A stretch of DNA of 64,000 nt from NCBI RefSeq assembly GCF_003018255.1, contig NZ_CP027440.1. One strand, written 5' to 3'. Each line of letters begins with the position of its first letter. Position 1 is the first letter of the stretch. Below, piece after piece: positions 7,972-64,000 of this stretch. Made by a program: the position numbers and the translations under genes. The notes below the pieces were generated by a model. It was given only the letters and a program-made list of their open reading frames with translations, made no database searches and had not been told where the DNA came from. This stretch comes from Escherichia coli. GTDB lineage: Bacteria > Pseudomonadota > Gammaproteobacteria > Enterobacterales > Enterobacteriaceae.

Positions 7972-8149
7972 AAGAAATCCTTTCTTAGAGAATTATTGAG
8001 GCCCGGTATCATACCGACTGCAACAATGAAATAAGAGCAAACGAAGAAACTTTCAGAATTAGGCCCGGCGGCGCAGAAAATTTTGCTATTCGCCTCGCAA
8101 GAACGGAGAGCCGTCGATTGACACTAAGGGCGGAGTGACATAATTTCAG

Positions 8150-8300
8150 GAGTGAGGGTTAGGGAGAGGTTTCCCCCTCCCCCTGGTGTTCTTAGTAAGC
8201 CTGGAAGCTAATCACTAAGAGTATCACCAGTATGATGACGTGCTTCATCATAACCCTTTCCTTATTAAAAGCCCTCTTCTCCGGGAGAGGGTTTCCCGTT
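8150..8300 (+). ncRNA. sibA: Sib antitoxin sRNA, copy 1 (SibA-like); ends approximate
   Basis: TTGACA (8118) and CATAAT (8139) promoter elements. The transcript is fully antisense to ibsA. Terminator hairpin GCCCTCTTCTCCGGGAGAGGGT is followed by TTCCCGTTT. Confidence 0.75.
8192..8251 (-). CDS. ibsA: Ibs type I toxin peptide, copy 1: MMKHVIILVILLVISFQAY
   Basis: My own translation of the minus strand gives 19 codons plus TAA, with an AAGGAAAGGG SD-like stretch upstream. The peptide matches IbsA as I recall it. Confidence 0.85.
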   Translation of the reverse strand: MMKHVIILVILLVISFQAY

Positions 8301-8485
8301 TCAGCGTCCCGCTGAAATCGTCGGCTTACCTCCTTTCGCCCTGAATGCAGTCTATCGCTAACGCGTGAACAAAATAGTTTCCTCTGTGATTATTGCGTAA
8401 CGACTCGCAAAGAATATTTGCTGGCAGGATCGCAGACTACAAAGCCTGCGGATTGACAATCTTATCGTGAAGGCATAATTTCAGG

Positions 8486-8629
8486 AGTGAGGGTAGAGCG
8501 GGGTTTCCCCCGCCCTGGTAGTCTTAGTAAGCTGGCCAGCTAATAACTAAGAGCACCACGATGATGAGTAGCTTCATCATGACCCTTTCCTTATTTAAGG
8601 CCCCTTCCTCGGGAGGGGCTTTCCCGTTT
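8486..8629 (+). ncRNA. sibB: Sib antitoxin sRNA, copy 2 (SibB-like); ends approximate
   Basis: TTGACA (8453) and CATAAT (8474). Antisense to the ibs ORF. Hairpin GGCCCCTTCCTCGGGAGGGGCT plus T-run. Confidence 0.75.
8524..8580 (-). CDS. ibsB: Ibs type I toxin peptide, copy 2: MMKLLIIVVLLVISWPAY
   Basis: Minus-strand translation gives 18 codons plus TAA, at the same position within the repeat unit as copy 1. Confidence 0.82.
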   Translation of the reverse strand: MMKLLIIVVLLVISWPAY

Positions 8630-8813
8630 CAGCGTCCCGCTGAAATCGGCGGCCTACCTCCTTTCGCCATGCAAGCAGTCTATCGCTAACTTGCAGATAA
8701 AATAGTTTCACATGTGATTATTGCGTAACGTCTCGCAAAGAATATTTGCTGGCAGGATCGCAGACTACAAAGCCTGCGGATTGACAATCTAATTGTGAAG
8801 GCATACTTTCAGG

Positions 8814-8957
8814 AGTGAGGGTAGAGCGGGGTTTCCCCCGCCCTGGTAGTCTTAGTAAGCCGGGAAGCTTATGACTAAGAGCACCACGATGATGATCCAC
8901 TTCATCATGACCCTTTCCTTATTTAAGGCCCCTTCCTCGGGAGGGGCTTTCCCGTTT
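8814..8957 (+). ncRNA. Sib-family antitoxin sRNA, copy 3; ends approximate
   Basis: TTGACA (8781) and CATACT (8802). Antisense to the third ibs ORF, with the same hairpin plus T-run as copy 2. Confidence 0.7.
8852..8908 (-). CDS. Ibs-family toxin peptide, copy 3: MMKWIIIVVLLVISFPAY
   Basis: Minus-strand translation gives 18 codons plus TAA, with the conserved MMK...(V/I)S(F/W/Y)PAY frame. Confidence 0.78.
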   Translation of the reverse strand: MMKWIIIVVLLVISFPAY

Positions 8958-9141
8958 CAGCGTCCCGCTGAAATCATCGGCTTACCTCCTTTCGCCCTGA
9001 ATGCAGTCTATCGCTGACTTGCGGATAAAATAGTTTCACATGTGATTATTGCGTGACGTCTCGCAAAGAATATTTGCTGGCAGGATCGCAGACTGCAAAG
9101 CCTGCGGATTGACAATCGGACCGTGAAGGCATACTTTCAGG

Positions 9142-9285
9142 AGTGAGGGTAGAGCGGGGTTTCCCCCGCCCTGGTAGTCTTAGTAAGCTGGGTAGCTAAC
9201 GACTAAGAGCACCACGATGATGAGTATCTTCATCATGACCCTTTCCTTATTTAAGGCCCCTTCCTCGGGAGGGGCTTGCCCGTTT
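9142..9285 (+). ncRNA. Sib-family antitoxin sRNA, copy 4; ends approximate
   Basis: TTGACA (9109) and CATACT (9130). Antisense to the fourth ibs ORF. Hairpin GGCCCCTTCCTCGGGAGGGGCT is followed by TGCCCGTTT. Confidence 0.7.
9180..9236 (-). CDS. Ibs-family toxin peptide, copy 4: MMKILIIVVLLVVSYPAY
   Basis: Minus-strand translation gives 18 codons plus TAA. Confidence 0.78.
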   Translation of the reverse strand: MMKILIIVVLLVVSYPAY

Positions 9286-22582: not shown

Positions 22583-22613
22583 AGCTGCATTTATTAAGGT
22601 TATCATCCGTTTC

Positions 22614-22700
22614 GCTGAAAAACATAACCCATAAAATGCTAGCTGTACCAGGAACCACCTCCTTAGCCTGTGTAATCTCCCTTACACGGGCTTATTTTTT
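22614..22700 (+). ncRNA. cyaR: CyaR (RyeE) Hfq-dependent sRNA
   Basis: GCTGAAAAACATAACCCATAAAATGCTAGCTGTACCAGGAACCACCTCCTTAGCCTGTGTAATCTCCCTTACACGGGCTTATTTTTT matches CyaR as I remember it. It includes the terminator hairpin and U-run. Confidence 0.92.
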
Positions 22701-38850: not shown

Positions 38851-38985
38851 AGTTTGCTCCTGCCATAACGTGAAGAAGCAATGACCTGGTGGTCCGTGAC
38901 TTCCCTACGCTGGCATTATCCAGATCAGGTGATACGGGTATTTCTCAGCCTTCACAAAGAAGGGCACCCCGAGTCGTTTGGTTGC
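38851..38985 (-). promoter_or_regulatory. TPP (THI-box) riboswitch of thiMD
   Basis: The minus strand reads ...GGGGTGCCCTTCTTTGTGAAGGCTGAGAAATACCCGTATCACCTGATCTGGATAATGCCAGCGTAGGGAAGTCACGGACCACCAGGTCATTGCTTCTTCACGTTATGGCAGGAGCAAACTATG. This is the classic thiM aptamer plus SD-sequestering expression platform. Confidence 0.93.
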
Positions 38986-49893: not shown

Positions 49894-49923
49894 AAGGCGC
49901 TGCATCGACAGCGCCTTTTCTTT
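49894..49923 (+). terminator. metG rho-independent terminator
   Basis: AAGGCGCTGCATCGACAGCGCCTT followed by TTCTTT. Confidence 0.8.
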
Positions 49924-50024
49924 ATAAATTCCTAAATTTGTTTTCTTGCGATTTTGTCTCTCTCTAACCCGCATAAATACTGGTAGCATCTGCATTCAAC
50001 TGGATAAAATTACAGGGATGCAGA

Positions 50025-53000
50025 ATGAGACACTTTATCTATCAGGACGAAAAATCACATAAATTCTGGGCGGTGGAGCAGCAGGGAAACGAACTGCACA
50101 TCAACTGGGGTAAAGTCGGCACCAACGGACAAAGCCAGGTAAAAAGTTTTGCGGATGCAGCAGCGGCGGAAAAAGCGGGACTGAAGCTGATTGCAGAGAA
50201 GGTGAAGAAGGGGTATGTGGAGCAAGCGAAGGATAATTCTTTGCAACCTTCCCAAACGGTAACGGACTCTCTCAAGGTAGCTGACTTATCCACCATTATT
50301 CAGGAACAACCCTCTTTCGTAGCAGAAACCCGTGCGGCTGACAAAAATACAGATGCTGTTTTACCGTGGCTGGCGAAAGATATTGCTGTCGTTTTTCCGC
50401 CCGAAGTTGTACACACCACGTTAAGTCATCGCCGCTTTCCCGGAGTTCCTGTTCAGCAAGCAGACAAATTGACCCAATTACGTCGCTTAGCCTGTAGTGT
50501 GTCGCAACGGGATAATAAAACAGCCACATTTGACTTCAGCGCCTGTTCTTTAGAATGGCAAAACACCGTCGCCCAGGCGATCAGTCAGATCGACGGCCTG
50601 AAAACAACACAGCTACCATCACCCGTAATGGCTGTACTCACTGCACTTGAAATGAAATGCACAAGATATAAAGAGCGTGAGGATGTTATGGATCAGATTA
50701 TTCAGGAAGGCGGTCTGGAATATGCTACTGATGTAATAATACATCTTCAACAAATATCTATTGAATGGGATTATGTCAACAATAATATTGTTTTCCTGTC
50801 GTCTGGCATTTCACCTGATTACTTGCAGCAATATTCCAGCTTTGAATTACGCCTACGTAAACATTTATCACTGGCGGAAGAGTCTCTCTGGCAAAAATGT
50901 GCACAAAAACTTATTGCCGCAATTCCACATATTCCAGAATGGCGGCAACCATTAATTGCTTTGTTATTACCCGAAAAACCAGAAATTGCACATGAAATTT
51001 CCCAGCGTCTACTGGGGCAAAAGAAATTACCCTCGCTTGAGTGGCTAAAAATAGTGGCGACTGATGAGCACATTCTTGCCTCATTAGAAAAATATCACGA
51101 GCCATATGCCATTTTTGATGATTACTATTGTGGTGCGATATGGTCAGCCACCGTATTACAGGAGCAAGGTGTTACAGCCCTGCCCCGATTTGCTCCCTAT
51201 GCCGCAAGTGACTACTGCGCCGATGTGTTGCGTCATATCAATCATCCGTTCGCATTAACACTGCTTATACGTGTAGCCGGGCATACTAAACGCTGTCACG
51301 ATCGAATGACGAAAGCCTGCGCTGCGTTCCCACACGCAGCACTGGCAGCACTGGCGGAACTTCTAGTGCAAAAAGAAGAGAATAGTTGGCGCATTATGCT
51401 AATGACGATGCTTATCTCGCATCCGACACTAGCAGAACAGGTCATTCCCTGGCTTTCGACACCCGCAGTTGCAGTGCTGAAATCATGTCAGCAACAACTG
51501 ACACAGCCCTCAAACCATGCCAGCGCCGATCTACTGCCGGCCATAGTAGTCTCCCCACCATGGCTTTCGAAAAAGAAAAAATCGCCGATTCCGGTGCTGG
51601 ATTTAGCACCGCTCAACCTCGAATCCATATGCACAATAACCGACACAGAAGCTAAAGAGTTTCAAACTCATTGGGACTGGGAACCGCATAAGCCAAGTGA
51701 AGGTGCTAAAAATTTCCTTTACTCGCTGGGGTATCGCCGCTGGGATTTTGACACATATAAATATATCGGCGCTTCTGACTCGGCAATTGACGCATGGGAA
51801 CGTGAGGACTTCGCTACACTCATCCAAATGTTTAAAGCCCACCATGCACCGTATCAGGGGGAGTGGCATCTCAACTCACTTCCCTTTTTACCTATGCAAA
51901 AAGCGATTAAGCTATGGGAATTTCTCAGCAAAGAGCCGCATACCGCGATAAAACCAGTCATGCTTTATTTGCGACTGGCAGGTATGAGTGGTTTTCTACA
52001 CTCGTTTTCACGCTACCCTCAAGAAGGTTTTGCGGTTGCTAATTATTTTGCCGCAACGGAACTGGCTCCTGCCGTCGCCCGCGCCTTCAACAAACTCAAA
52101 ACATTACGACAAGACGCCAGTAGCTGGCTGCTGAAATACCCGGAACACGCCATTACCGGCCTGCTGCCTGCAGCGCTCGGCAAAGCCAGTGAAGCACAGG
52201 ACAACGCCCGTGCTGCCTTGCGTATGCTTACCGAAAACGGTCATCAGCCATTGCTGCAAGAAATCGCCCGGCGTTATAACCAGCCGGAAGTAACCGATGC
52301 GGTGAACGCTCTACTTGCGCTCGATGCCTTAGATAATCACCCGACAAAAATCCCCACTCTTCCGACCTTTTATCAGCCATCGCTCTGGACGCGCCCGTTA
52401 TTAAAAGCAAACGCCCAATCACTGCCTGATAGCGCACTCCTCCACCTCGGTGAAATGCTCCGCTTCCCTCAGGAAGAGGCACTGTATCCGGGATTATTGC
52501 AGGTGAAAGATGCCTGTACCACCGACTCACTGGCTGAATTTGCCTGGGATCTGTTTACCGCCTGGCAGACCGCTGGCGCGCCGTCGAAAGAGAGTTGGGC
52601 GTTCACTGCGTTAGGCGTTCTCGGTAACGATGACACCGCCCGCAAACTGACGCCTTTGATTCGCGCCTGGCCTGGTGAATCCCAGCATAAACGCGCCACC
52701 GTCGGGTTGGATATTCTCGCTGCTATCGGTAGTGATATCGCCCTGATGCAGCTTAACGGCATCGCCCAGAAACTGAAATTCAAAGCATTACAGGAGCGGG
52801 CAAAAGAAAAAATTGCCGACATTGCCGAGAGCCGCGAACTCACGGTGGCGGAGCTTGAAGATCGGTTAGCACCGGATCTCGGTCTGGATGATAATGGTTC
52901 GTTGTTGCTGGATTTCGGCCCACGCCAGTTCACCGTCAGCTTTGATGAAACCTTAAAACCGTTTGTGCGTGACGCTTCCGGCAGTCGTCTGAAAGACCTG

Positions 53001-53813
53001 CCCAAACCAAACAAAAGCGATGATGAATTACAGGCGAACAATGCTGTTAACCGCTACAAATTGCTGAAAAAAGATGCGCGTACCGTCGCCGCCCAGCAGG
53101 TAGCAAGGCTGGAATCCGCCATGTGCCTGCGTCGCCGCTGGTCACCGGAAAACTTTCAGCTCTTCCTGGTTGAGCATCCGCTGGTCCGCCACTTAACCCG
53201 CCGTCTGATTTGGGGCGTTTATAGCGCCGAAAACCAGCTACTGGCTTGCTTTCGCGTAGCGGAAGATAACAGCTACAGCACCGCTGACGATGATCTTTTC
53301 ACCCTGCCGGAAGGCGATATCTCTATTGGTATTCCTCACGTTCTGGAAATATCACCGACGGATGCTGCCGCCTTCGGGCAGCTTTTTGCCGACTACGAAC
53401 TGTTACCACCGTTCCGCCAGCTTGATCGTAACAGTTACGCGCTGACAGAAGCCGAGCGCAATGCCAGCGAACTGACACGCTGGGCAGGCAGAAAATGCCC
53501 GAGTGGTCGGGTAATGGGGCTGGCAAATAAAGGCTGGATGCGTGGTGAACCGCAGGACGGTGGCTGGATCGGCTGGATGATCAAACCTCTGGGCCGCTGG
53601 TCGTTAATCATGGAAATCGATGAAGGTTTTGCGGTCGGCATGTCGCCAGCCGAACTCAGTGCCGAGCAACTCTTAAGCAAGCTGTGGCTATGGGAAGGCA
53701 AAGCGGAAAGCTATGGCTGGGGGAGTAATTCAACACAGGAAGCGCAGTTCTCCGTACTCGATGCCATCACCGCCAGCGAGCTAATTAACGATATTGAAGC
53801 CCTGTTTGAATAA
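50025..53813 (+). CDS. yehH: WGR-domain / DUF4132-type giant protein YehH (intact MolR; remembered as a split pseudogene in K-12)
   Basis: Uninterrupted 1262-aa ORF. The N-terminal WGR-type motif is FWAVEQQGNELHINWGKVGTNGQSQVKSF...KLIAEKVKKGY. A long helical-repeat body follows, and the C-terminal region is shared with YehI (LDFGPRQFTVSFDE..., RLIWGVY). Confidence 0.88.
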   Translation: MRHFIYQDEKSHKFWAVEQQGNELHINWGKVGTNGQSQVKSFADAAAAEKAGLKLIAEKVKKGYVEQAKDNSLQPSQTVTDSLKVADLSTIIQEQPSFVAETRAADKNTDAVLPWLAKDIAVVFPPEVVHTTLSHRRFPGVPVQQADKLTQLRRLACSVSQRDNKTATFDFSACSLEWQNTVAQAISQIDGLKTTQLPSPVMAVLTALEMKCTRYKEREDVMDQIIQEGGLEYATDVIIHLQQISIEWDYVNNNIVFLSSGISPDYLQQYSSFELRLRKHLSLAEESLWQKCAQKLIAAIPHIPEWRQPLIALLLPEKPEIAHEISQRLLGQKKLPSLEWLKIVATDEHILASLEKYHEPYAIFDDYYCGAIWSATVLQEQGVTALPRFAPYAASDYCADVLRHINHPFALTLLIRVAGHTKRCHDRMTKACAAFPHAALAALAELLVQKEENSWRIMLMTMLISHPTLAEQVIPWLSTPAVAVLKSCQQQLTQPSNHASADLLPAIVVSPPWLSKKKKSPIPVLDLAPLNLESICTITDTEAKEFQTHWDWEPHKPSEGAKNFLYSLGYRRWDFDTYKYIGASDSAIDAWEREDFATLIQMFKAHHAPYQGEWHLNSLPFLPMQKAIKLWEFLSKEPHTAIKPVMLYLRLAGMSGFLHSFSRYPQEGFAVANYFAATELAPAVARAFNKLKTLRQDASSWLLKYPEHAITGLLPAALGKASEAQDNARAALRMLTENGHQPLLQEIARRYNQPEVTDAVNALLALDALDNHPTKIPTLPTFYQPSLWTRPLLKANAQSLPDSALLHLGEMLRFPQEEALYPGLLQVKDACTTDSLAEFAWDLFTAWQTAGAPSKESWAFTALGVLGNDDTARKLTPLIRAWPGESQHKRATVGLDILAAIGSDIALMQLNGIAQKLKFKALQERAKEKIADIAESRELTVAELEDRLAPDLGLDDNGSLLLDFGPRQFTVSFDETLKPFVRDASGSRLKDLPKPNKSDDELQANNAVNRYKLLKKDARTVAAQQVARLESAMCLRRRWSPENFQLFLVEHPLVRHLTRRLIWGVYSAENQLLACFRVAEDNSYSTADDDLFTLPEGDISIGIPHVLEISPTDAAAFGQLFADYELLPPFRQLDRNSYALTEAERNASELTRWAGRKCPSGRVMGLANKGWMRGEPQDGGWIGWMIKPLGRWSLIMEIDEGFAVGMSPAELSAEQLLSKLWLWEGKAESYGWGSNSTQEAQFSVLDAITASELINDIEALFE

Positions 53814-53822
53814 GGAAAGAGC

Positions 53823-56800
53823 ATGGACAAGGAATTACCGTGGCTGGCGGATAACGCCCAACTGGAACTGAAATATAAAAAAGGCAAAACACCACTCAGC
53901 CATCGCAATTGGCCAGGCGAACCGGTACCTGTTATCACTGAAAACATCATTCAGACACTGGGTGATGAATTGCTACAAAAAGCAGAGAAGAAAAAAAACA
54001 TTGTCTGGCGTTATGAAAACTTTTCACTGGAGTGGCAGTCCGCCATCACGCAGGCCATCAACTTGATCGGCGAACACAAACCCTCAATCACGGCCCGGAC
54101 AATGGCGGCGCTAGCCTGTATCGCGCAAAATGATAGCCAACAGTTGCTCGACGAAATCGTCCAACACGAGGGGCTGGAATATGCAACTGAGGTGGTGATT
54201 GCACGCCAGTTTATTGTACGGTGTTATGAGAGTGATCCTCTGGTAGTAACATTGCAATATCAGAACGAGGACTATGGCTATGGTTATCGCTCAGAAACCT
54301 ATAACGAATTCGATCTCCGATTGCGTAAGCATCTCTCTCTGGCAGAGGAAAGCTGCTGGCAGCGTTGCGCCGACAAACTCATTGCCGCACTGCCAGGAAT
54401 AACCAAAGTTCGCCGCCCTTTTATTGCGCTGAACCTCCCGGAAAAACCCGAAATCGCCAACGAGCTGGTAAGCCTTGAATGTTCGCAAACTCATTTTCGC
54501 TCAAAAGAGTGGTTAAAAGTTGTTGCTGATGACCCTAAGGCGGTGAAAGAACTCGCACGTTACTGGAGCCAGGATATATTTAGCGATCGAGAAGCCAGCT
54601 ACATGTCGCATGAAAACCACTTCGGCTACGCGGCCTGCGCTGCCCTTTTGCGCGAACAAGGACTGGCAGCCGTTCCGCGCCTCGCGATGTATGCACATAA
54701 AGAAGATTGCGGCAGTCTGCTGGTACAAATTAACCATCCGCAAGTCATCCGCACCTTGCTACTGGTGGCTGATAAAAACAAACCCAGCCTGCAACGTGTG
54801 GCTAAATACAGTAAAAACTTCCCCCATGCGACGCTCGCCGCACTGGCAGAACTGCTGGCGTTAAAAGCCCCCCCTGCGCGCCCTGGTTATCCCATCATCG
54901 AAGACCAAAAGCTGCCTGCACAGCAAAAAGCACGTGATGAATACTGGCATACGCTGTTACAAACGCTGATGGCATCGCAGCCACAACTGGCAGAAGAGGT
55001 GATGCCGTGGTTAAGTACTCAAGCCCGGGCAGTGCTGAATAGTTATTTATCGGCACCGCCCAAAACGGTTATTGATAGCACCGATAACAGCCAAATGCCT
55101 GAAATCCTCGTTTCACCACCGTGGCGTAGTAAGAAAAAAATGACAGCTCCACGTCTTGATTTGGCACCGCTCGAATTAACCCCGCAAGTTTACTGGCAAC
55201 CAGGCGAACAAGAGAGGCTTGCCTCCACTGAGTCTGCCCGTTATTTCAGCACGGAATCTCTTGCTGAACGCATGGAACAAAAAAGTGGACGAGTTGTATT
55301 ACAGGAACTGGGTTTTGGGGATGATGTATGGCTGTTTCTGAATTATATACTCCCCGGAAAACTGGATGCTGCACGCAATTCACTCATTGTTCAGTGGCAT
55401 TACTACCCAGGGCGGGTTGAAGAGATCATGAATGGCTGGAGCTCCCCGGAAGCTCAATTAGCAGAACAGGCGCTTCGCAGCGGTCACGTAGAAGTGTTAA
55501 TTAACATATGGGAAAATGACAGCTACTCACGTTATCGTCCGGAAAAGAGTGTCTGGAACCTGTATTTATTGGCACAGTTGCCGCGTGAGATGGCTTTGCC
55601 TTTCTGGCTACGTATCAATGAGAAAAAGCATCTGTCTGCGGGTGAGGACTATTTTCTCAGTATCTTCGGATTGGATGCTCTACCAGGTCTGCTGTTGGCT
55701 TTTTCACATCGTCCAAAAGAAACATTTCCGTTAATTTTAAATTTTGGCGCAACAGAACTGGCCCTGCCCGTTGCCCGCGTCTGGCGACGTTTCGCGGCGC
55801 AGCGTGATCTGGCCCGCCAGTGGATTTTACAATGGCCGGAACATACGGCTACTGCACTTATCCCTCTTGTCTTCACCAAACCCAGCGATAATAGCGAAGC
55901 TGCATTACTTGCCCTACGTTTACTTTACGAACAGGGACATGGTGAATTGCTGCAAACCGCGGCAAACCGCTGGCAGCGTACAGATGTATGGCCTGCCCTG
56001 GAGCATTTACTTAAACAGAGTCCAATAGAGATTTACCCGGCACGCATGCCAAAAGCCCCTGATTTCTGGCATCCGCTAATGTGGTCCAGGCCGCGCCTAA
56101 TCATTAATCATCAACTTATTACCGATGACGCTCTGGAAATTATCGGCGAAATGCTGCGCTTTACCCAGGGGGGACGTTTTCATAGCGGGCTGGAACAACT
56201 GAAAACGTTCTGCCAGCCGCAAACGCTGGCAGCTTTTGCCTGGGATCTCTTCACTGCGTGGCAACAAGCTGGTGCCCCCGCAAAAGACAACTGGGCATTT
56301 CTGGCGTTAAGTCTCTTTGGTGACGAAAGCACGGCACGGGATCTAACGACACAGATCCTCGCCTGGCCACAAGAAGGCAAATCTACCCGTGCTGTCAGTG
56401 GCCTGAACATCCTTACCCTGATGAATAATGATATGGCGCTGATACAGCTGCATCATATATCGCAACGGGCGAAATCCCGCCCCTTACGTGATAACGCGGC
56501 GGAATTTCTTCAGGTGGTCGCAGAAAATCGCGGGCTAAGCCAGGAAGAGTTAGCGGACAGATTAGTCCCAACACTGGGCCTTGATGATCCGCAGGCGTTG
56601 AGTTTTGATTTTGGTCCCCGGCAGTTTACCGTTCGCTTCGATGAAAACCTTAACCCGGTTATCTTTGATCAGCAAAACGTTCGCCAGAAAAGCGTTCCCC
56701 GGTTGCGCACCGATGACGATCAACTGAAAGCGCCCGAGGCACTGGCCCGATTAAAAGGGCTAAAAAAAGATACGACTCAGGTGAGCAAAAACCTGCTCCC

Positions 56801-57455
56801 CCGTCTTGAAGCTGCCCTGCGTACCACCCGACGCTGGTCGCTGGCAGATTTTCATTCTCTGTTTGTTAATCATCCCTTTACCCGTCTGGTTACCCAGCGA
56901 TTAATATGGGGCGTGTATCCGGCAAATGAACCGCGTCGTTTACTCAACGCCTTTCGTGTGGCCGCAGAGGGGGAGTTCTGCAATGCGCAAGATGAGCCCA
57001 TTGACCTGCCTGCGGATGCTCTGATTGGCATTGCCCACCCGTTAGAAATGACAGAAGGAATGCGCAGTGAATTTGCACAGCTTTTTGCCGATTACGAAAT
57101 TATGCCGCCTTTTCGCCAGTTGGCGCGGCGCACGGTGCTGCTCACACCTGACGAGTCAACCAGTAACAGCCTGACTCGCTGGGAAGGTAAATCCGCTACC
57201 GTTGGGCAGCTTATGGGAATGCGATACAAAGGCTGGGAGTCAGGCTATGAGGACGCATTTGTCTATGGCCTGGGCGAGTACCGGCTGGTCCTTAAGTTTT
57301 CACCCGGTTTTAACCACTACAATGTTGATAGCAAAGCGTTAATGAGCTTCCGTTCTCTTCGAGTGTACCGTGACAATAAATCCGTCACTTTTGCCGAACT
57401 TGATGTGTTTGATTTGAGTGAGGCGTTAAGCGCACCTGACGTCATTTTCCATTAA
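53823..57455 (+). CDS. yehI: DUF4132-type giant protein YehI (paralog of YehH without the WGR domain)
   Basis: 1210-aa ORF starting 9 nt after the yehH stop, with an AAGGAAAG SD. It aligns by eye to YehH from about residue 105 (LPWLA..., LRLRKHLSLAEES.W..CA.KLIAA.P, FDFGPRQFTVRFDE, RLIWGVY). Confidence 0.9.
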   Translation: MDKELPWLADNAQLELKYKKGKTPLSHRNWPGEPVPVITENIIQTLGDELLQKAEKKKNIVWRYENFSLEWQSAITQAINLIGEHKPSITARTMAALACIAQNDSQQLLDEIVQHEGLEYATEVVIARQFIVRCYESDPLVVTLQYQNEDYGYGYRSETYNEFDLRLRKHLSLAEESCWQRCADKLIAALPGITKVRRPFIALNLPEKPEIANELVSLECSQTHFRSKEWLKVVADDPKAVKELARYWSQDIFSDREASYMSHENHFGYAACAALLREQGLAAVPRLAMYAHKEDCGSLLVQINHPQVIRTLLLVADKNKPSLQRVAKYSKNFPHATLAALAELLALKAPPARPGYPIIEDQKLPAQQKARDEYWHTLLQTLMASQPQLAEEVMPWLSTQARAVLNSYLSAPPKTVIDSTDNSQMPEILVSPPWRSKKKMTAPRLDLAPLELTPQVYWQPGEQERLASTESARYFSTESLAERMEQKSGRVVLQELGFGDDVWLFLNYILPGKLDAARNSLIVQWHYYPGRVEEIMNGWSSPEAQLAEQALRSGHVEVLINIWENDSYSRYRPEKSVWNLYLLAQLPREMALPFWLRINEKKHLSAGEDYFLSIFGLDALPGLLLAFSHRPKETFPLILNFGATELALPVARVWRRFAAQRDLARQWILQWPEHTATALIPLVFTKPSDNSEAALLALRLLYEQGHGELLQTAANRWQRTDVWPALEHLLKQSPIEIYPARMPKAPDFWHPLMWSRPRLIINHQLITDDALEIIGEMLRFTQGGRFHSGLEQLKTFCQPQTLAAFAWDLFTAWQQAGAPAKDNWAFLALSLFGDESTARDLTTQILAWPQEGKSTRAVSGLNILTLMNNDMALIQLHHISQRAKSRPLRDNAAEFLQVVAENRGLSQEELADRLVPTLGLDDPQALSFDFGPRQFTVRFDENLNPVIFDQQNVRQKSVPRLRTDDDQLKAPEALARLKGLKKDTTQVSKNLLPRLEAALRTTRRWSLADFHSLFVNHPFTRLVTQRLIWGVYPANEPRRLLNAFRVAAEGEFCNAQDEPIDLPADALIGIAHPLEMTEGMRSEFAQLFADYEIMPPFRQLARRTVLLTPDESTSNSLTRWEGKSATVGQLMGMRYKGWESGYEDAFVYGLGEYRLVLKFSPGFNHYNVDSKALMSFRSLRVYRDNKSVTFAELDVFDLSEALSAPDVIFH

Positions 57456-57516: not shown

Positions 57517-57870
57517 ATGATCGTGCAAAAAGAGCTGGTTGCTATTTACGATTATGAGGTCCCTGTACCTGAAGATCCGTTTTCCTTCAGACTTGAGATC
57601 CATAAATGCTCTGAATTATTTACAGGTTCCGTCTATCGACTGGAGCGATTCCGGCTACGTCCAACATTTCATCAACGTGATCGAGAAGATGCTGACCCGC
57701 TAATAAATGATGCGTTGATTTATATAAGAGATGAGTGTATTGATGAGCGGAAATTACGAGGTGAATCACCTGAAACTGTAATAGCAATTTTTAATCGTAA
57801 ACTACAGAATATATTCAACCAACTAATAGAATATTACTTTATTAAAGGGGGAAGCGGTTTTCCCCCTTAG
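57517..57870 (+). CDS. yehK: Small protein of unknown function YehK (3' end runs into the zor terminator hairpin)
   Basis: 117-aa ORF (MIVQKELVAIYDYEVPVPEDPF...). The last codons (IKGGSGFPP*) are encoded by the GGGGGAAGCGGTTTTCCCCC hairpin. Confidence 0.8.
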   Translation: MIVQKELVAIYDYEVPVPEDPFSFRLEIHKCSELFTGSVYRLERFRLRPTFHQRDREDADPLINDALIYIRDECIDERKLRGESPETVIAIFNRKLQNIFNQLIEYYFIKGGSGFPP

Positions 57871-57889: not shown

Positions 57890-57979
57890 TTACTTCAACA
57901 AATCAATCAACCGTAACAGAGCCACTAATAGCTCCAGTACAGCAATGAGCACGGTTAACTTTTGTGTCAGCGTGTCCAT
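57890..57979 (-). CDS. zorO: Zor-family type I toxin, 29 aa: MDTLTQKLTVLIAVLELLVALLRLIDLLK (copy 1; O/P assignment not determined)
   Basis: My own minus-strand translation, with an AAGGAG SD 5 nt upstream. The peptide matches ZorO of the zor-orz family (first described in O157:H7) as I recall it. A TATAAT (minus strand, 58166-58161) lies about 175 nt upstream, consistent with the long 5' UTR reported for zorO. Confidence 0.8.
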   Translation of the reverse strand: MDTLTQKLTVLIAVLELLVALLRLIDLLK

Positions 57980-58217
57980 CCGCTCTCCTTATTAAGGAGC
58001 GCAACACCAGCACCTTACCCTTACACTGCCTGTCGACACTGGTTTACGTTTGTTGAGTCGCCATGTTGCACTCCGGATCAGAGCACTACCTGCGGCACCA
58101 CCCGTCCGGTAGCCAGGACTTGAAATGGGTTCGATCCGGCGCAACTTCCCAACAGTCAGGATTATAAATCTCATTATCTTAATTGCAACACGGTCCAGCG
58201 GTGGTTATAATTCGTTC

Positions 58218-58297
58218 GTTGAGATGCCATGTTGCACTATCAGTAACTTAACATCAAAGTAGTAAATAAAAGAACCTGCCTCACCAGCAGGTTCTTT
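58218..58297 (+). ncRNA. orzO: Orz-family antitoxin sRNA, copy 1 (ends approximate)
   Basis: TTGCAA (58183-58188), a 17-nt spacer and TATAAT (58206-58211). The 5' segment GTTGAGATGCCATGTTGCACT is complementary to the zor 5' UTR at 58052-58072. Terminator AGAACCTGCCTCACCAGCAGGTTCT plus TTTTATTTT. Confidence 0.72.
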
Positions 58298-58497
58298 TAT
58301 TTTCTGCGATCTACTTTCCAGATATTTTTCGCCAATAGCCCACCATAAATATTCACATCCCGGCCAAATAGTACGTTGATTATAAAATCGATGAATTTAT
58401 AAATAAAAATGAGTTATATGATGAATTAATAAAAACAGTAATCATTTTATTAAAGGGGGAAACGGTATTCCCCCTTAGATGCGTTTCAATTTGCCCG

Positions 58498-58587
58498 TTA
58501 CTTCAACAAATCAATCAACCGTAACAGAGCCACTAATAGCTCCAGTACAGCAATGAGCACGGTTAACTTTTGTGTCAGCGTGTCCAT
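58498..58587 (-). CDS. zorP: Zor-family type I toxin, 29 aa, identical peptide (copy 2)
   Basis: The 90-nt ORF is identical to copy 1, with the same SD and the same promoter arrangement (minus-strand TATAAT at 58774-58769). Confidence 0.8.
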   Translation of the reverse strand: MDTLTQKLTVLIAVLELLVALLRLIDLLK

Positions 58588-58825
58588 CCGCTCTCCTTAT
58601 TAAGGAGCGCAACACCAGCACCTTACCCTTACACTGCCTGTCGATACTGGTTTACGTATGTTGGTACGAAACGTTGCTCTCCGGATCAGGGCACCGCCTG
58701 CGGCACCACCCGTCCAGCAGCCAGGACTTAAAATTGGTCCGATCCGGCACAACCTCCCAACGGGCAGGATTATAAATCTCATTCACTGAATTGCAATGGA
58801 GTGTGGATATGGTTATAATTTATTC

Positions 58826-58908
58826 GTTGGTACGAAATGTTGCACAATCAGCAAGTTAGCGTCATTGTAGTAAATAAAAGAACCTGCCTCACCAGCAGGT
58901 TTTTTTAT
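58826..58908 (+). ncRNA. orzP: Orz-family antitoxin sRNA, copy 2 (ends approximate)
   Basis: TTGCAA (58791-58796), a 17-nt spacer and TATAAT (58814-58819). The 5' segment GTTGGTACGAAATGTTGCACA is complementary to the zor 5' UTR at 58660-58680. Terminator AGAACCTGCCTCACCAGCAGGTT plus TTTTTTATTT. Confidence 0.72.
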
Positions 58909-59017: not shown

Positions 59018-60106
59018 ATGTCACCGCAGAATAATCATCTGCAGCGTCCGCCTGCCGCTGTGTTATACGCCGATGAACTGGCAAAATTAAAACAAAATGA
59101 TCACGCACCTTGCCCGCCCGGTTGGCAGTTAAGTTTGCCTGCGGCCCGCGCTTTTATCCTTGGCGATAGCGCGCAAAATATTAGCCGTAAAGTCGTGATC
59201 AGTCCCTCCGCTGTCGAACGCATGTTAGTCACTCTCGCTACCGGGCGCGGTTTGATGTTGGTGGGGGAACCTGGCACCGCAAAATCGCTCCTGTCTGAAT
59301 TACTGGCAACCGCTATTAGCGGCGATGCCGGGTTAACCATCCAGGGCGGCGCATCTACCACCGAAGATCAAATCAAGTACGGCTGGAACTACGCCCTGCT
59401 TATCAACCATGGTCCGTCAACGGAAGCGCTGGTCCCTGCCCCGCTTTACCAGGGAATGCGCGACGGCAAAATTGTCCGTTTTGAAGAGATAACGCGTACA
59501 CCGCTGGAAGTACAAGACTGTCTGTTAGGTATGCTTTCTGACAGGGTAATGACGGTGCCGGAACTCACCGGTGAAGCCAGTCAGCTCTATGCGCGAGAAG
59601 GCTTTAATATTATTGCCACTGCCAATACCCGCGATCGCGGCGTCAATGAGATGAGTGCCGCGCTAAAGCGTCGCTTCGATTTTGAAACCGTCTTTCCGAT
59701 TATGGATTTCGCCCAGGAGCTGGAACTGGTCGCCAGTGCTTCGGCGCGTTTGCTGGCCCATAGCGGTATTCCGCATAAAGTGCCTGACGCGGTACTGGAG
59801 TTACTGGTCCGCACCTTCCGCGATCTGCGTGCCAACGGCGAAAAGAAAACGTCAATGGATACCCTGACGGCAATTATGTCCACCGCTGAAGCCGTGAACG
59901 TGGCCCACGCAGTGGGCGTCCGCGCCTGGTTTTTAGCGAATCGCGCAGGTGAGCCAGCCGATCTGGTGGACTGTATTGCCGGAACCATCGTCAAAGATAA
60001 CGAAGAAGATCGCGCTCGTCTGCGCCGTTACTTCGAACAGCGAGTCGCCACACATAAAGAAGCTCACTGGCAGGCTTATTATCAAGCTCGCCACCGCCTG
60101 CCGTGA
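59018..60106 (+). CDS. yehL: MoxR-class AAA+ ATPase YehL (AAA_5-type)
   Basis: Track ORF 58952..60106. The start is ATG 59018 (MSPQNNHLQRPPAAV), giving 362 aa. Walker A GEPGTAKS, Walker B-like IVRFEEITR, sensor-1 IIATANTRD, and an arginine region SAALKRRFDF. Confidence 0.9.
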   Translation: MSPQNNHLQRPPAAVLYADELAKLKQNDHAPCPPGWQLSLPAARAFILGDSAQNISRKVVISPSAVERMLVTLATGRGLMLVGEPGTAKSLLSELLATAISGDAGLTIQGGASTTEDQIKYGWNYALLINHGPSTEALVPAPLYQGMRDGKIVRFEEITRTPLEVQDCLLGMLSDRVMTVPELTGEASQLYAREGFNIIATANTRDRGVNEMSAALKRRFDFETVFPIMDFAQELELVASASARLLAHSGIPHKVPDAVLELLVRTFRDLRANGEKKTSMDTLTAIMSTAEAVNVAHAVGVRAWFLANRAGEPADLVDCIAGTIVKDNEEDRARLRRYFEQRVATHKEAHWQAYYQARHRLP

Positions 60107-60116
60107 GGAAAGATGC

Positions 60117-62396
60117 ATGAGCGAGCCGTTAATTGTCGGCATCCGGCATCATAGTCCGGCCTGCGCCCGGCTGGTGAAATCGTTAATCGAAAGCCAGCGG
60201 CCACGATACGTGTTGATTGAAGGCCCGGCTGATTTTAATGACCGGGTAGACGAACTGTTTTTAGCCCACCAGCTTCCGGTAGCTATTTACAGTTATTGCC
60301 AGTATCAGGACGGTGCAGCCCCCGGGCGTGGTGCCTGGACGCCATATGCTGAATTTTCGCCGGAGTGGCAGGCGCTACAAGCCGCTCGTCGTATTCAGGC
60401 ACAAACTTACTTCATCGATTTGCCTTGCTGGGCGCAGAGTGAAGAAGAGGACGATTCGCCTGATACGCAAGAGGAAAGCCAGACCTTGCTGCTGCGTGCC
60501 ACCCGCATGGATAACAGCGACACCCTGTGGGATCACTTGTTCGAAGATGAAAGCCAGCAAACTGCATTACCCTCTGCACTGGCGCACTATTTTGCACAAC
60601 TGCGGGGCGATTCCCCCGGAGATGCTCTCAATCGTCAGCGCGAAGACTTTATGGCCCGCTGGATTGGTTGGGCGATGCAGCAAAACAATGGCGACGTGTT
60701 AGTCGTCTGCGGTGGCTGGCACGCTTCTGCACTGGCAAAAATGTGGCGCGAATGCCCGCAGGAAATTAACACGCCGGAATTGCCCTCGCTGGCAGATGCC
60801 GTTACAGGTTGTTATCTCACCCCCTACAGTGAAAAGCGCCTTGATGTGCTGGCAGGATACCTTTCCGGTATGCCTGCCCCGGTCTGGCAAAACTGGTGCT
60901 GGCGGTGGGGCTTGCAGCAGGCAGGTGAACAACTGCTGAAAACGGTTCTTACCCGTTTGCGCCAGCACCACTTGCCTGCTTCAACAGCGGATATGGCTGC
61001 CGCTCATCTGCATGCGATGGCACTGGCACAGTTGCGTGGTCATACACTACCGTTACGCACTGACTGGCTGGATGCCATAGCAGGCTCGCTGATTAAAGAA
61101 GCCCTGAATGCGCCGTTGCCGTGGAGCTATCGCGGCGTTATTCATCCCGATACCGATCCGATTCTGCTAACGTTGATAGACACATTAGCGGGTGACGGAT
61201 TCGGTAAACTTGCCCCCTCTACGCCACAGCCGCCTCTGCCAAAAGATGTCACCTGCGAACTGGAACGTACAGGAATCTCTTTTCCGGCGGAGCTTACTTT
61301 AAATCGCTTTACCCCCGATGGACTGGCGCAAAGTCAGGTGTTACATCGGCTGGTAATACTGGAGATCCCAGGGGTTGTGCGCCAGCAGGGAAGTACACTG
61401 ACACTTGCAGGCAACGGTGAAGAACGCTGGAAATTAACCCGCCCGCTTAGCCAACATGCGGCATTAATTGAGGCCGCCTGCTTTGGTGCCACACTCCAGG
61501 AAGCCGCACGCAATAAATTAGAAGCCGATATGCTGGACGCGGGTGGAATCGGCAGTATCACCACATGTCTTAGCCAGGCGGCGTTAGCGGGTCTGGCGTC
61601 CTTCAATCAACAATTACTGGAGCAACTCACATTATTAATCGCCCAGGAAAATCAGTTTGCCGAAATGGGCCAGGCGCTGGAAGTGCTATATGCCTTATGG
61701 CGGCTGGATGAAATTAGCGGTATGCAGGGCGCGCAGATATTACAAACGACATTATGCGCGGCCATCGATCGCACGCTGTGGCTATGTGAATCCAACGGCA
61801 GACCGGATGAAAAGGAGTTTCACGCTCACCTGCATAGCTGGCAAGCGCTTTGCCATATCCTGCGCGATCTACATAGCGGCGTTAATTTACCCGGCGTTTC
61901 TCTTTCTGCGGCGGTAGCCTTACTGGAGCGACGCAGTCAGGCGATTCATGCCCCGGCGCTGGATCGCGGCGCGGCACTTGGCGCACTGATGCGTCTGGAA
62001 CATCCCAACGCCAGTGCCGAAGCGGCGCTGACAATGCTGGTGCAATTATCCCCGACACAATCCGGCGAGGCGCTGCACGGTTTGCTGGCATTAGCCCGTC
62101 ATCAACTGGCCTGTCAGCCGGTATTTATCGCCGGTTTCAGCAGTCATTTAAATCAACTGAGTGATGCCGATTTTATCAATGCCCTGCCCGATTTACGCGC
62201 GGCGATGGCCTGGCTACCACCACGAGAACGCGGGACGCTGGCGCATCAGGTGCTTGAGCATTATCAACTGGTGCAACTTCCCGTTTCGGCACTGCAAATG
62301 CCGTTGCATTGTCCACCACAAGACATTGCACATCATCAACAACTCGAACAGCAGGCACTGGCATCGCTGCAACACTGGGGAGTTTTCCATGTCTGA
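60117..62396 (+). CDS. yehM: Large protein of unknown function YehM
   Basis: Track ORF 59949..62396. The start is ATG 60117, which is 10 nt after the yehL stop and preceded by a GAGGAAAG SD (MSEPLIVGIRHHSPACARLV...). This gives 759 aa. The body is mostly Leu/Ala-rich and helical. Confidence 0.88.
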   Translation: MSEPLIVGIRHHSPACARLVKSLIESQRPRYVLIEGPADFNDRVDELFLAHQLPVAIYSYCQYQDGAAPGRGAWTPYAEFSPEWQALQAARRIQAQTYFIDLPCWAQSEEEDDSPDTQEESQTLLLRATRMDNSDTLWDHLFEDESQQTALPSALAHYFAQLRGDSPGDALNRQREDFMARWIGWAMQQNNGDVLVVCGGWHASALAKMWRECPQEINTPELPSLADAVTGCYLTPYSEKRLDVLAGYLSGMPAPVWQNWCWRWGLQQAGEQLLKTVLTRLRQHHLPASTADMAAAHLHAMALAQLRGHTLPLRTDWLDAIAGSLIKEALNAPLPWSYRGVIHPDTDPILLTLIDTLAGDGFGKLAPSTPQPPLPKDVTCELERTGISFPAELTLNRFTPDGLAQSQVLHRLVILEIPGVVRQQGSTLTLAGNGEERWKLTRPLSQHAALIEAACFGATLQEAARNKLEADMLDAGGIGSITTCLSQAALAGLASFNQQLLEQLTLLIAQENQFAEMGQALEVLYALWRLDEISGMQGAQILQTTLCAAIDRTLWLCESNGRPDEKEFHAHLHSWQALCHILRDLHSGVNLPGVSLSAAVALLERRSQAIHAPALDRGAALGALMRLEHPNASAEAALTMLVQLSPTQSGEALHGLLALARHQLACQPVFIAGFSSHLNQLSDADFINALPDLRAAMAWLPPRERGTLAHQVLEHYQLVQLPVSALQMPLHCPPQDIAHHQQLEQQALASLQHWGVFHV

Positions 62397-63525
62397 ACTG
62401 AACGATCTTCTGACCACCCGTGAGCTACAACGCTGGCGATTAATTCTTGGCGAAGCGGCAGAAACGACGCTTTGTGGGCTGGATGACAACGCCCGGCAGA
62501 TAGACCACGCGATGGAGTGGCTGTATGGGCACGATCCTGAACGGTTCCAGCGTGGTGAACGCTCCGGTGGATTAGGTTGCTCAAATCTCACCCCCCCTGA
62601 GTGGATCAACAGTATTCACACGCTGTTTCCGCAACAGGTGATTGAACGGCTGGAAAGCGATGCCGTACTGCGCTACGGCATTGAAGATGTGGTGACGAAT
62701 CTCGACGTGCTGGAACGTATGCAACCGTCTGAAAGCCTGCTACGCGCCGTTTTGCACACCAAACATCTGATGAATCCCGAAGTACTGGCTGCCGCCCGCC
62801 GGATAGTACGCCAGGTTGTTGAAGAAATTATGGCTCGACTGGCAAAGGAAGTTCGTCAGGCTTTTTCTGGTGTCCGCGATCGCCGCCGTCGCTCATTTAT
62901 TCCACTGGCGCGTAATTTCGATTTCAAAAGTACGCTGCGTGCCAACCTGCAACACTGGCATCCGCAACACGGCAAGTTGTATATCGAATCCCCCCGCTTT
63001 AACAGCCGCATTAAGCGCCATAGCGATCAATGGCAACTGGTCTTACTGGTTGATCAAAGCGGATCGATGGTTGACTCGGTGATCCACTCAGCGGTGATGG
63101 CGGCCTGTTTATGGCAGTTACCCGGCATTCGTACCCATCTGGTGGCGTTTGACACCAGCGTGGTTGATCTCACGGCAGACGTTGCCGATCCGGTAGAGTT
63201 ATTAATGAAAGTACAACTGGGCGGCGGGACCAATATCGCCAGTGCCGTGGAGTATGGTCGGCAACTTATTGAACAACCTGCAAAAAGTGTCATTATCCTC
63301 GTGAGCGATTTCTATGAAGGTGGTTCATCATCATTGCTGACGCATCAGGTGAAAAAGTGTGTCCAGAGCGGCATCAAAGTGCTGGGACTGGCGGCGCTCG
63401 ATAGCACCGCAACACCTTGCTATGACCGCGATATGGCCCAGGCACTGGTTAATGTCGGTGCACAAATAGCCGCCATGACGCCGGGCGAACTGGCGACCTG
63501 GCTTGCGGAGAATCTTCAGTCATGA
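62389..63525 (+). CDS. yehP: von Willebrand factor A (MIDAS) protein YehP
   Basis: Track ORF 62161..63525. The start is ATG 62389, overlapping the yehM stop (ATGTCTGA), giving 378 aa. MIDAS residues: LLVDQSGSM, GGGTNIASA, ILVSDFYEGG. Confidence 0.9.
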   Translation: MSELNDLLTTRELQRWRLILGEAAETTLCGLDDNARQIDHAMEWLYGHDPERFQRGERSGGLGCSNLTPPEWINSIHTLFPQQVIERLESDAVLRYGIEDVVTNLDVLERMQPSESLLRAVLHTKHLMNPEVLAAARRIVRQVVEEIMARLAKEVRQAFSGVRDRRRRSFIPLARNFDFKSTLRANLQHWHPQHGKLYIESPRFNSRIKRHSDQWQLVLLVDQSGSMVDSVIHSAVMAACLWQLPGIRTHLVAFDTSVVDLTADVADPVELLMKVQLGGGTNIASAVEYGRQLIEQPAKSVIILVSDFYEGGSSSLLTHQVKKCVQSGIKVLGLAALDSTATPCYDRDMAQALVNVGAQIAAMTPGELATWLAENLQS

Positions 63526-64000
63526 ATTCACTACGTCCGGAATTATTAGAACTGACACCACAGGCACTGACGGCGTTAAGCAATGCCGGTTTTGTTAAGC
63601 GCAGCCTTAAAGAACTGGAAAATGGCAACGTCCCGGAAATCAGTCATGAGAACGGCGCTTTAATCGCCACCTTCAGTGACGGTGTCCGCACCCAGCTGGC
63701 GAACGGCCAGGCACTGAAAGAGGCTCAGTGCAGCTGCGGGGCCAGCGGCATGTGCCGCCATCGCGTGATGCTGGTTTTAAGTTATCAGCGACTTTGCGCC
63801 ACCACCCAGCCTACGGAAAAAGAAGAAGAGTGGGATCCGGCAATCTGGCTGGAAGAACTGGCTACCCTGCCCGATGCCACCCGCAAACGCGCACAGGCGC
63901 TGGTCGCTAAAGGCATCACCATTGAGTTGTTCTGTACGCCGGGCGAAATTCCCTCTGCCCGCTTACCGATGAGCGATGTACGTTTTTATTCCCGCAGCAG
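63522..64000 (+). CDS. yehQ: SWIM zinc-finger protein YehQ, N-terminal 159 codons (continues past the window end)
   Basis: The ATG at 63522 overlaps the yehP stop (ATGA). My translation is MNSLRPELLELTPQALTALSNAGFVKRSLKELENG... with SWIM CxC-x7-CxH (CSCGASGMCRH, nt 63729-63761). The frame stays open to nt 64000. It is absent from the ORF track because no stop lies inside the window. Confidence 0.85.
   Translation, partial: MNSLRPELLELTPQALTALSNAGFVKRSLKELENGNVPEISHENGALIATFSDGVRTQLANGQALKEAQCSCGASGMCRHRVMLVLSYQRLCATTQPTEKEEEWDPAIWLEELATLPDATRKRAQALVAKGITIELFCTPGEIPSARLPMSDVRFYSRS

Follow-up and report, generated by a model that had tools for sequence, protein, structure and literature searches.

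Intact yehH (molR) and yehI in an Escherichia coli strain: WGR–DUF4132 paralogs with an SOS box and a conserved link to MoxR–vWA genes

The large genes yehH (also named molR) and yehI lie side by side, downstream of metG, in a 64,000-nucleotide (nt) stretch of Escherichia coli DNA (NCBI RefSeq assembly GCF_003018255.1, contig NZ_CP027440.1), referred to here as the window. A preliminary description of the region, made from the sequence alone, drew attention to the intact state of yehH and to its paralogy with yehI. RefSeq gives the gene order as yehB, yehC, yehD, yehE (minus strand), apbC (minus strand), metG, a DUF4132 gene (yehH), yehI, a small hypothetical gene, yehL, yehM, yehP and yehQ, and the YehH of the window is identical (100%) to RefSeq WP_001563648.1, annotated as a “DUF4132 domain-containing protein”. 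The 8.5-kb stretch around yehH and yehI has a match in 5425 of 5426 complete E. coli genomes, and shows 100% identity with the E. coli JNE112863 chromosome. The main clues to the function of the pair are a LexA (SOS) box in front of yehH and a conserved linkage to yehL, yehM, yehP and yehQ (yehLMPQ), both of which the preliminary description missed.

The two adjacent open reading frames (ORFs), of 1262 and 1210 amino acids (aa), are both on the plus strand and lie 9 nt apart (Table 1), as previously described. Their products can be aligned over most of their length (BLASTP, 440/1182 identities, 37%; 667 bits; E = 0). The alignment places YehI residue 2 opposite YehH D110, in agreement with the proposed start of YehI opposite YehH residue ~105, and the three peptide pairs cited as examples of the similarity were all found, at YehH/YehI positions 275/165, 962/928 and 1059/1025. 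The WGR head is restricted to the first copy: the Pfam WGR profile matches YehH alone (65.5 bits; cut-off 22), and a hidden Markov model search gave no WGR match in YehI, whose Met1 lies opposite YehH residue ~110. DUF4132 (PF13569) was detected in both proteins, with scores of 176.1 bits for YehH and 159.4 bits for YehI (cut-off 27). Beyond WGR and DUF4132, no Pfam or NCBIfam domain was found in either protein, including any helix-turn-helix (HTH) or molybdate-binding domain.

The near-identical peptides could in principle have arisen by recent gene conversion between yehH and yehI. This was ruled out, since identity at third codon positions of the three peptide pairs is only 37–44% and no window of high nucleotide identity is present; the likeness of the peptides therefore reflects constraint on old paralogs. 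Over its full length, YehI is 55–57% identical to the WGR-less copy of Klebsiella and 37% identical to YehH; for the conserved core, the corresponding values are 67% and 45%. Thus, yehH and yehI are real, anciently diverged paralogs.

An AlphaFold2 (AF2) model of YehH residues 1–1200, built from a 75-sequence alignment, had a predicted local distance difference test score (pLDDT) of 89.9 and a predicted template modelling score of 0.80. The model consists of the WGR head (residues 1–66), a disordered linker (70–109), a helical-repeat solenoid with small beta inserts, and an alpha/beta C-terminal region. The C-terminal module (residues 937–1262), for which a structure prediction had been proposed, was predicted with a pLDDT of 96.1. 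A profile search of the PDB gave matches limited to 2ra8 (WGR), the WGR domain of PARP3 and HEAT-like alphaRep repeats, and the modelled WGR domain structurally matches 2ra8 and PARP1. No catalytic fold is recognizable in the YehH model, and the C-terminal alpha/beta module is, as modelled, a putative new fold unit. When the YehH model was used to search viral structures (BFVD), only small WGR proteins were recovered, with no match to the solenoid or to DUF4132; stand-alone WGR proteins of 90–140 aa occur in Agrobacterium phage Atu_ph07 and in uncultured Caudovirales.

The preliminary description gave the first gene as a pseudogene in K-12, and the K-12 (O16:H48) record indeed reads “frameshifted; internal stop”. 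Alignment of the window with the K-12 locus, which had been suggested as a way to map the lesions, places them at codon 275, where TTA is changed to TGA, and in a GG run after gene nt 2839 (approximately window position 52863), where K-12 has an additional G. The K-12 copy therefore differs from the intact ORF of the window by a stop and a frameshift, and the stop coincides with the opening residue of the LRLRKHLSLAEES motif quoted in the preliminary description. An exact 61-mer spanning the K-12 frameshift was found in 352 of 5426 complete genomes, and an exact 62-mer spanning the TGA in 706. A further 3993 genomes are one position away from the frameshift 61-mer, and those inspected (BL21 and wild isolates) do not have the extra G. 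In a sample of 12 RefSeq genomes, yehH is intact in eight and broken in four (K-12, D9, 2013C-4361 and O157:H7), in different ways. The identical 1262-aa YehH was found on at least 1000 contigs, a count taken from a homolog search dominated by near-identical E. coli proteins. The lesion counts, the sampled genomes and the contig count show that E. coli usually carries an intact yehH. The suggestion that it is a special feature of this strain was not borne out, K-12 being the exception. The intact gene, its paralog, the WGR and DUF4132 domains and the pseudogene status in K-12 are also known from public annotation, and, given that the intact form is the E. coli norm, the earlier finding adds little.

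Evidence that the intact genes are maintained came from comparison of alleles. Ratios of nonsynonymous to synonymous substitution rates (dN/dS), whose calculation had been proposed and was made here by the Nei-Gojobori method, were 0.10–0.35 among eight intact yehH alleles and 0.13–0.33 among ten yehI alleles, indicating purifying selection. Constraint is strongest in the C-terminal ~480 codons (dN/dS 0.03–0.15); for yehI, comparison with the K-12 allele gave a dN of 0.030 and a dS of 0.111. Inactivating changes not visible as stops had been raised as a possibility for the window YehH. No sign of them was found: of 127 testable columns with at least 90% conservation among 74 diverse homologs, YehH retains 125, which rules out cryptic inactivation of this kind. 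The two departures are L508V and Q1128P, the latter shared with YehI. In YehI, 25 of 120 conserved columns outside the WGR domain deviate from what is typical of the family. The earlier wording “probably functional” is thus consistent with purifying selection and with retention of conserved residues.

A different explanation is that yehH and yehI are functionless remnants in the process of decay in E. coli, and that the open frames in this strain have simply not yet been broken. Recurrent pseudogenes that vary across the species, loss of the locus in Shigella, and the lack of any phenotype in the searched literature besides the 1990 molR genetics are all consistent with decay. However, decay is difficult to reconcile with dN/dS values of 0.10–0.35 sustained over 1200 codons in many independent allele pairs, and of 0.03–0.15 in the C-terminal module, or with retention of 125/127 conserved columns. 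Moreover, frames of 3.6–3.8 kb are both open in most sampled genomes, the LexA box is conserved, and orthologs have been kept since before Escherichia and Klebsiella split. We therefore consider decay improbable.

The preliminary description also proposed that this strain holds the ancestral form of the locus. This is correct insofar as the frame is open, but copy A of the array is absent, the central cassette of yehH is a minority allele, and yehH is mosaic. A tree of enterobacterial copies separates into three ancient clades, named A, B (with yehH) and I (with yehI), each of which includes genes of both Escherichia and Klebsiella; the three-gene array is therefore older than the split between the two genera. 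The window has B and I without A, as does K-12, and copy A is kept in 1630 of 5426 E. coli genomes (~30%). The third, older paralog is also found in Klebsiella spallanzanii. Some strains have three tandem paralogs after metG, and in Ec-050-T5-MAC all three are intact, whereas in the three-copy array of O157:H7 the first copy has a stop and the second is split. A three-paralog strain with intact yehLMPQ would sit nearer the ancestral layout. Decay of the proposed sensor and motor genes is uncoupled in the loci examined: Ec-050-T5-MAC has three intact DUF4132 genes alongside a frameshifted yehL and a yehM with an internal stop, and in O157:H7 the A and B copies are broken and yehI is intact. At the Shigella flexneri locus, ORFs matching yeh genes are mostly short fragments.

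As to the mosaic structure of yehH, the gene is 89% identical overall in nucleotide sequence to the K-12 allele, and dS among E. coli alleles reaches 0.36. Within the cassette (aa ~541–660), nucleotide identity to the K-12 and T5_B alleles falls to 38–59%, between flanks of 90–100%. Mean dN across alleles is ~0.4 in the cassette, where dN/dS is uninterpretable since the segment has been replaced; everywhere outside it, dN/dS is below 1. Genomes with the window-type cassette number 625, compared with 3384 for the K-12 type. At the protein level the two classes share 43–49% identity, a distance as great as that between either class and the Klebsiella ortholog.

Upstream of yehH lies the LexA box AACTGGATAAAATTACAGGG; no other CTG-N10-CAG site in the window agrees with the LexA consensus at 13 or more of its 20 positions. 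The box has the same sequence in K-12, O157, Shigella and the three-copy strain, and a LexA box is found at the same place in two Klebsiella species, where the rest of the spacer has diverged. On this basis yehH is a candidate member of the E. coli LexA regulon, with LexA binding and induction predicted for this strain. Indeed, molR is among the E. coli genes with a known SOS box listed in Table 1 of a review (PMC6590174), and its membership of the SOS regulon has been in the literature since 2000–2001 (cited in PMC6590174). BglJ-RcsB additionally activates the molR promoter of K-12, on which H-NS exerts no repression (PMC3950696). Depletion of the damage-response repressor DdrO in Deinococcus radiodurans leads to strong derepression of one WGR protein and one DUF4132 protein (PMC8533742). 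The metG terminator separates metG from the yehH promoter region, and the short gap between yehH and yehI contains no terminator, suggesting that the two genes are co-transcribed.

A possible functional connection between the DUF4132 genes and yehLMPQ was suggested by the distribution of the family. Searches with YehH residues 1–1200 identified relatives in 9214 clusters (50% identity) at E ≤ 1e-3, and in 2656 at E ≤ 1e-30. A sample of 80 loci from species-representative genomes was examined for synteny; many of the loci that appeared non-linked were short contigs or arrays extending past the flank. A YehL homolog lies beside the DUF4132 genes in 56/80 loci, with corresponding values of 53/80 for YehM, 46/80 for YehP and 45/80 for YehQ. 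The YehLMPQ homologs abut the DUF4132 genes, nearly always on the same strand and with the DUF4132 genes upstream, in five phyla; linked lineages include Enterobacterales, Moraxellaceae, Xanthomonadales, Burkholderiales, Alphaproteobacteria, Myxococcota, Holophagales and Actinomycetes. In Klebsiella, yehL is directly 3' of yehI, without yehK. YehL typifies a MoxR subfamily of its own, the “YehL subfamily” (PMC3893208), and with yehL and yehP downstream of yehI the locus has the gene content of a YehL-subfamily MoxR–vWA system. Among solved structures, those nearest to YehL are the midasin AAA domains; no relative of YehM or YehQ was found by a sequence search of the PDB. Since yehL, yehM, yehP and yehQ are all intact in the genome of this strain, it is a more complete background than K-12, and to that extent the earlier proposal that it is better suited to studying the locus is supported.

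The number of DUF4132 copies per locus ranges from one to at least eight in tandem, with WGR-bearing copies typically first in the array and WGR-less copies after them. Outside the enterics, the closest relative of a WGR-less copy is usually the gene next to it (54–85% core identity), from which it follows that the WGR domain has been lost repeatedly and independently after duplication. A WGR domain on the first copy alone is therefore a recurrent architecture and not a peculiarity of E. coli. The largest arrays, of at least 5–8 tandem DUF4132 paralogs, were seen in Massilia mucilaginosa and M. aquatica. The lexA gene itself accounts for the strong LexA boxes near the Massilia arrays: at one locus, lexA with two SOS boxes (8387 and 8404) lies ~1 kb upstream of the array (start 10001), and at a second locus the same double box is at 4466 and 4483. 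The closeness of lexA to these arrays may be coincidental.

The conserved neighborhood also bears on the proposal contained in the old name of this gene, in which MolR/YehH is a transcription factor for molybdate uptake or molybdoenzymes and uses its WGR domain to bind DNA. YehP is a vWA protein of the CoxE type, and CoxD and CoxE mature a Mo-Cu centre. The name molR derives from genetics published in 1990 (Lee, Wendt and Shanmugam, as cited in later papers), and the WGR domain has been termed the DNA-binding domain of “MolR-like TFs” (PMC7824862). Nevertheless, YehH is a 1262-aa solenoid with no HTH or classical transcription-factor module, K-12 and many wild strains carry the gene as a pseudogene, and the regulators that act on it are LexA and BglJ-RcsB, with no molybdate-related regulators among them. 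Its conserved neighbors encode MoxR, vWA and SWIM proteins, with no mod, moa or moe genes (the window has metG, apbC and yeh genes), and molybdenum genes of Deinococcus were unchanged when the WGR and DUF4132 genes changed (PMC8533742). The present analysis found no support for the old link to molybdate regulation mentioned in the preliminary description, and a role of this kind is very unlikely.

Table 1. Positions of features at the yehH–yehI locus, numbered from the first nucleotide of the window.
Feature	Coordinates	Strand	Details
metG intrinsic terminator	49894..49917	+	9-pair stem followed by T run; kept in K-12, O157 and Klebsiella
LexA (SOS) box AACTGGATAAAATTACAGGG	49998..50017	.	box ends 8 nt 5' of the yehH ATG
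yehH (molR), intact, 1262 aa; B-clade WGR + DUF4132 protein	50025..53813	+	ORF, ATG start
YehH WGR domain, aa 6-69	50040..50231	+	Pfam PF05406
Predicted disordered linker of YehH, aa 70-109	50232-50351	+	AF2 model
YehH HEAT-like alpha-solenoid scaffold, aa ~110-936	50352..52832	+	
yehH codon 275, TTA (Leu); TGA in K-12 (first K-12 lesion)	50847..50849	+	alignment with K-12 locus
yehH hypervariable central cassette, aa ~541-660, minority allele class	51645..52004	+	
GG run in yehH; extra G in K-12 (second K-12 lesion, +1 frameshift)	52863..52864	+	
YehH conserved C-terminal alpha/beta module, aa 937-1262	52833..53810	+	contains DUF4132, aa 986-1171, nt 52980-53537
yehI, 1210 aa; I-clade paralog without WGR; solenoid + DUF4132	53823..57455	+	ORF, ATG start; RefSeq WP_001563649.1
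YehI DUF4132, aa 954-1138	56682-57236	+	Pfam
yehK-like small ORF, 117 aa; Escherichia-specific insertion between yehI and yehL	57517..57870	+	ORF
Two zorO/orzO type I toxin-antitoxin modules, yehK-yehL gap; outside the proposed system	57890..58906	.	
yehL, MoxR-type AAA+ ATPase (AAA_5)	59018..60106	+	Pfam AAA_5, 119 bits; RefSeq coordinates
yehM, DUF5682 protein	60117..62396	+	Pfam PF18934, 320 bits
yehP, vWA (CoxE-like) protein	62389..63525	+	Pfam VWA_CoxE, 240 bits
yehQ, SWIM zinc-finger protein, cut by the window end	63522..64000	+	RefSeq; full sequence from the same genome; Pfam SWIM, 33 bits

The cross-phylum synteny (56/80 loci), the midasin-like YehL, the vWA/MIDAS protein YehP, the SOS box and the signature of selection led us to a model in which YehH and YehI act as probably non-enzymatic scaffolds, either sensors or adaptors, of a “split midasin-like” remodelling ATPase formed by YehL, YehM, YehP and YehQ; we assign it a probability of roughly 0.55. 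According to this model, DNA damage would lead to cleavage of LexA and derepression of yehH-yehI. Through its WGR head, the scaffold would be anchored to DNA ends, nicks or a different nucleic-acid signal, while the solenoid, with its variable central cassette, would grip a partner or target. The C-terminal module would then couple the scaffold to the vWA-AAA+ motor, and the motor would remodel the bound complex. Copies without a WGR domain, such as YehI, would serve as partners of the WGR copy or as alternative adaptors. The genes, domains, predicted fold, lesions, selection, SOS box and synteny described above were observed directly, whereas physical association of YehH and YehI with YehLMPQ, binding of nucleic acid by the YehH WGR domain and a biological output in either repair or defence are inferred.

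Several observations weigh against the adaptor model. Pseudogenes are frequent, affecting yehH in K-12, D9, 2013C-4361 and O157, yehI in N169, yehL and yehM in Ec-050-T5-MAC, and the whole locus in Shigella, which shows that the genes are dispensable in many conditions. DUF4132 genes lack adjacent yehLMPQ at ~14 loci for which the full flank was available, and in Escherichia yehK and two zor/orz modules split yehI from yehL. The scan of the 64-kb window found no LexA box at yehL. No lineage-specific LexA motifs were found upstream of the loci of Betaproteobacteria, Actinobacteria, Alphaproteobacteria, Xanthomonadales or Myxococcota; the data therefore do not support SOS control as a general feature of the WGR–DUF4132 family. 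Lastly, the C-terminal module has invariant D, H, R and Q residues that could form an unrecognized active or ligand-binding site, such that a “non-enzymatic” role for YehH is unproven.

An alternative interpretation of the linkage is that yehH/yehI and yehLMPQ form an anti-phage or anti-mobile-element conflict system, in which DUF4132 proteins sense the invader and the MoxR-vWA proteins trigger the response. Such a role is compatible with the adaptor mechanism. It would fit the variation in copy number, from 2–3 in E. coli to at least eight in tandem in Massilia, the deeply diverged cassette classes (43–49% protein identity) between near-identical flanks, the dS of up to 0.36 between E. coli alleles, and the recurrent, independent pseudogenization. 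It would also fit the use of the region as an insertion site, both for zor/orz modules and for a resistance transposon in sequence type 131 (ST131), where TnMB1860, which carries blaCTX-M-15, was found in the metG/DUF4132/yeh region in 184 isolates of sublineage L1a (PMC9334617); this insertion indicates that the locus tolerates disruption in a successful clinical lineage. The stand-alone WGR proteins of phages would be potential decoys for host WGR sensors, although this is speculation. On the other hand, a search of PADLOC-DB v2 at E ≤ 0.01 gave no match for any of six proteins (YehH, YehI, YehK, YehL, YehM and YehP). No nuclease, TIR, protease or pore-forming effector is encoded in the operon, and no effector domain is fused to the six longest of 150 listed family representatives, which contain WGR and DUF4132 only, bar one kinase fusion. 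The locus has a fixed chromosomal position (5425/5426 genomes), unlike typical mobile defence islands, and dN/dS is below 1 outside the replaced cassette. Given these data, we regard a conflict system as a tentative alternative, appreciably less probable than the adaptor model. The kinase fusion, in the 1776-aa representative P0242, places a HAMP-HisKA-HATPase histidine kinase ahead of WGR-DUF4132 and is either a genuine fusion or, more probably, a merged gene call.

A broader possibility, which we put forward with similar caution, is that WGR-DUF4132 arrays together with YehL-M-P-Q constitute a widespread system for surveillance of nucleic-acid damage or foreign DNA, present in at least five phyla, in which tandemly duplicated, diversifying solenoid sensors with swappable cassettes feed a midasin-like motor and which has been wired to the SOS response in enterobacteria. 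If this is the case, molR, broken in K-12, would encode the sensor for a new pathway of immunity or repair that is hidden in laboratory strains. More generally, molR is a long-listed SOS gene of uncharacterized function, and K-12 is unable to reveal that function because its own copy is broken. The set of WGR-DUF4132, MoxR, DUF5682, vWA and SWIM proteins includes thousands of family members with no experimental characterization in the searchable literature, and no functional papers on DUF4132 or DUF5682 were found in the literature searched. A strain in which yehH, yehI and yehLMPQ are all intact is a usable background in which to study them.

Other features of the region were also recorded. 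The yehK-like ORF has no Pfam, NCBIfam or PADLOC match. It encodes 117 aa here (“hypothetical protein” in RefSeq), compared with 105 aa for YehK in K-12, is frameshifted in strain S87, and among the loci examined occurs in Escherichia and Shigella only. The zor/orz modules comprise OrzO-P RNAs identified with Rfam (58225-58298 and 58833-58906) and 29-aa ZorO-like ORFs (57890-57979 and 58498-58587, minus strand); the zorO/orzO module, described for O157:H7, is absent from K-12 (PMC2887945). Downstream of the window, the annotation of this strain marks yehY, which encodes a glycine betaine ATP-binding cassette (ABC) transporter permease, as a pseudogene containing an internal stop (NZ_AP045072.1, 14388-14401 of the stretch examined). 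Elsewhere in the window, positions 8118-9251 hold a tandem array of four SIB antitoxin RNAs (Rfam RF00113, 137-150 bits) at intervals of ~330 nt, which is larger than the sibA/sibB pair of K-12 at this locus. A whole-window Rfam scan also identified the CyaR/RyeE small RNA (22612-22697; 100.7 bits) and a thiamine pyrophosphate (TPP) riboswitch (38885-38981, minus strand; 71.2 bits).

The closest comparison is with K-12, where molR (yehF/yehG/yehH fragments) and yehI occupy the same locus, with the same neighbors (metG on one side, yehK and yehL on the other) and the same SOS box. The window differs in that the yehH frame is open, the cassette is of a different class, and two zor/orz modules lie between yehK and yehL. 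There are also parallels with the MoxR-vWA “ternary” conflict systems proposed from comparative genomics (Pfam bpMoxR, PF20030), which consist of a MoxR protein, a vWA protein and a variable, lineage-expanded third component. The Yeh set resembles these in combining MoxR and vWA proteins with a variable, expanding component. However, YehL matches bpMoxR weakly (18.5 bits; cut-off 27), and the Yeh set includes no beta-propeller, recognized effector or PADLOC match.

At the level of domains, YehH has a WGR domain in common with PARP1/2/3 and with Bacteroides fragilis 2RA8. It differs from the PARPs in that the WGR is followed by neither a PARP catalytic domain nor a helical regulatory domain, and from both the PARPs and 2RA8 in that the WGR is joined to a solenoid by a ~40-residue disordered linker. 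The motif itself is W-G-K in YehH rather than W-G-R, and DNA binding is predicted. The WGR and DUF4132 domains are also found in D. radiodurans, in DR2173 and DRA0166, respectively, under control of the DNA-damage repressor DdrO (PMC8533742). In this case, compared by description only, the two domains are on separate proteins and replicons, unlike in YehH, and DdrO is unrelated to LexA.

Further parallels are with RavA-ViaA, CoxD-CoxE, NorQ-NorD and midasin/Rea1, which the Yeh set resembles in pairing an AAA_5 MoxR ATPase, YehL, with a CoxE-type vWA protein, YehP. As in the Yeh set, MoxR-vWA and midasin systems have large helical proteins alongside an AAA ring and a MIDAS domain. Relative to the characterized MoxR-vWA pairs, the Yeh set has additional components: a DUF5682 protein, a SWIM protein, and from one to many WGR/DUF4132 scaffolds.

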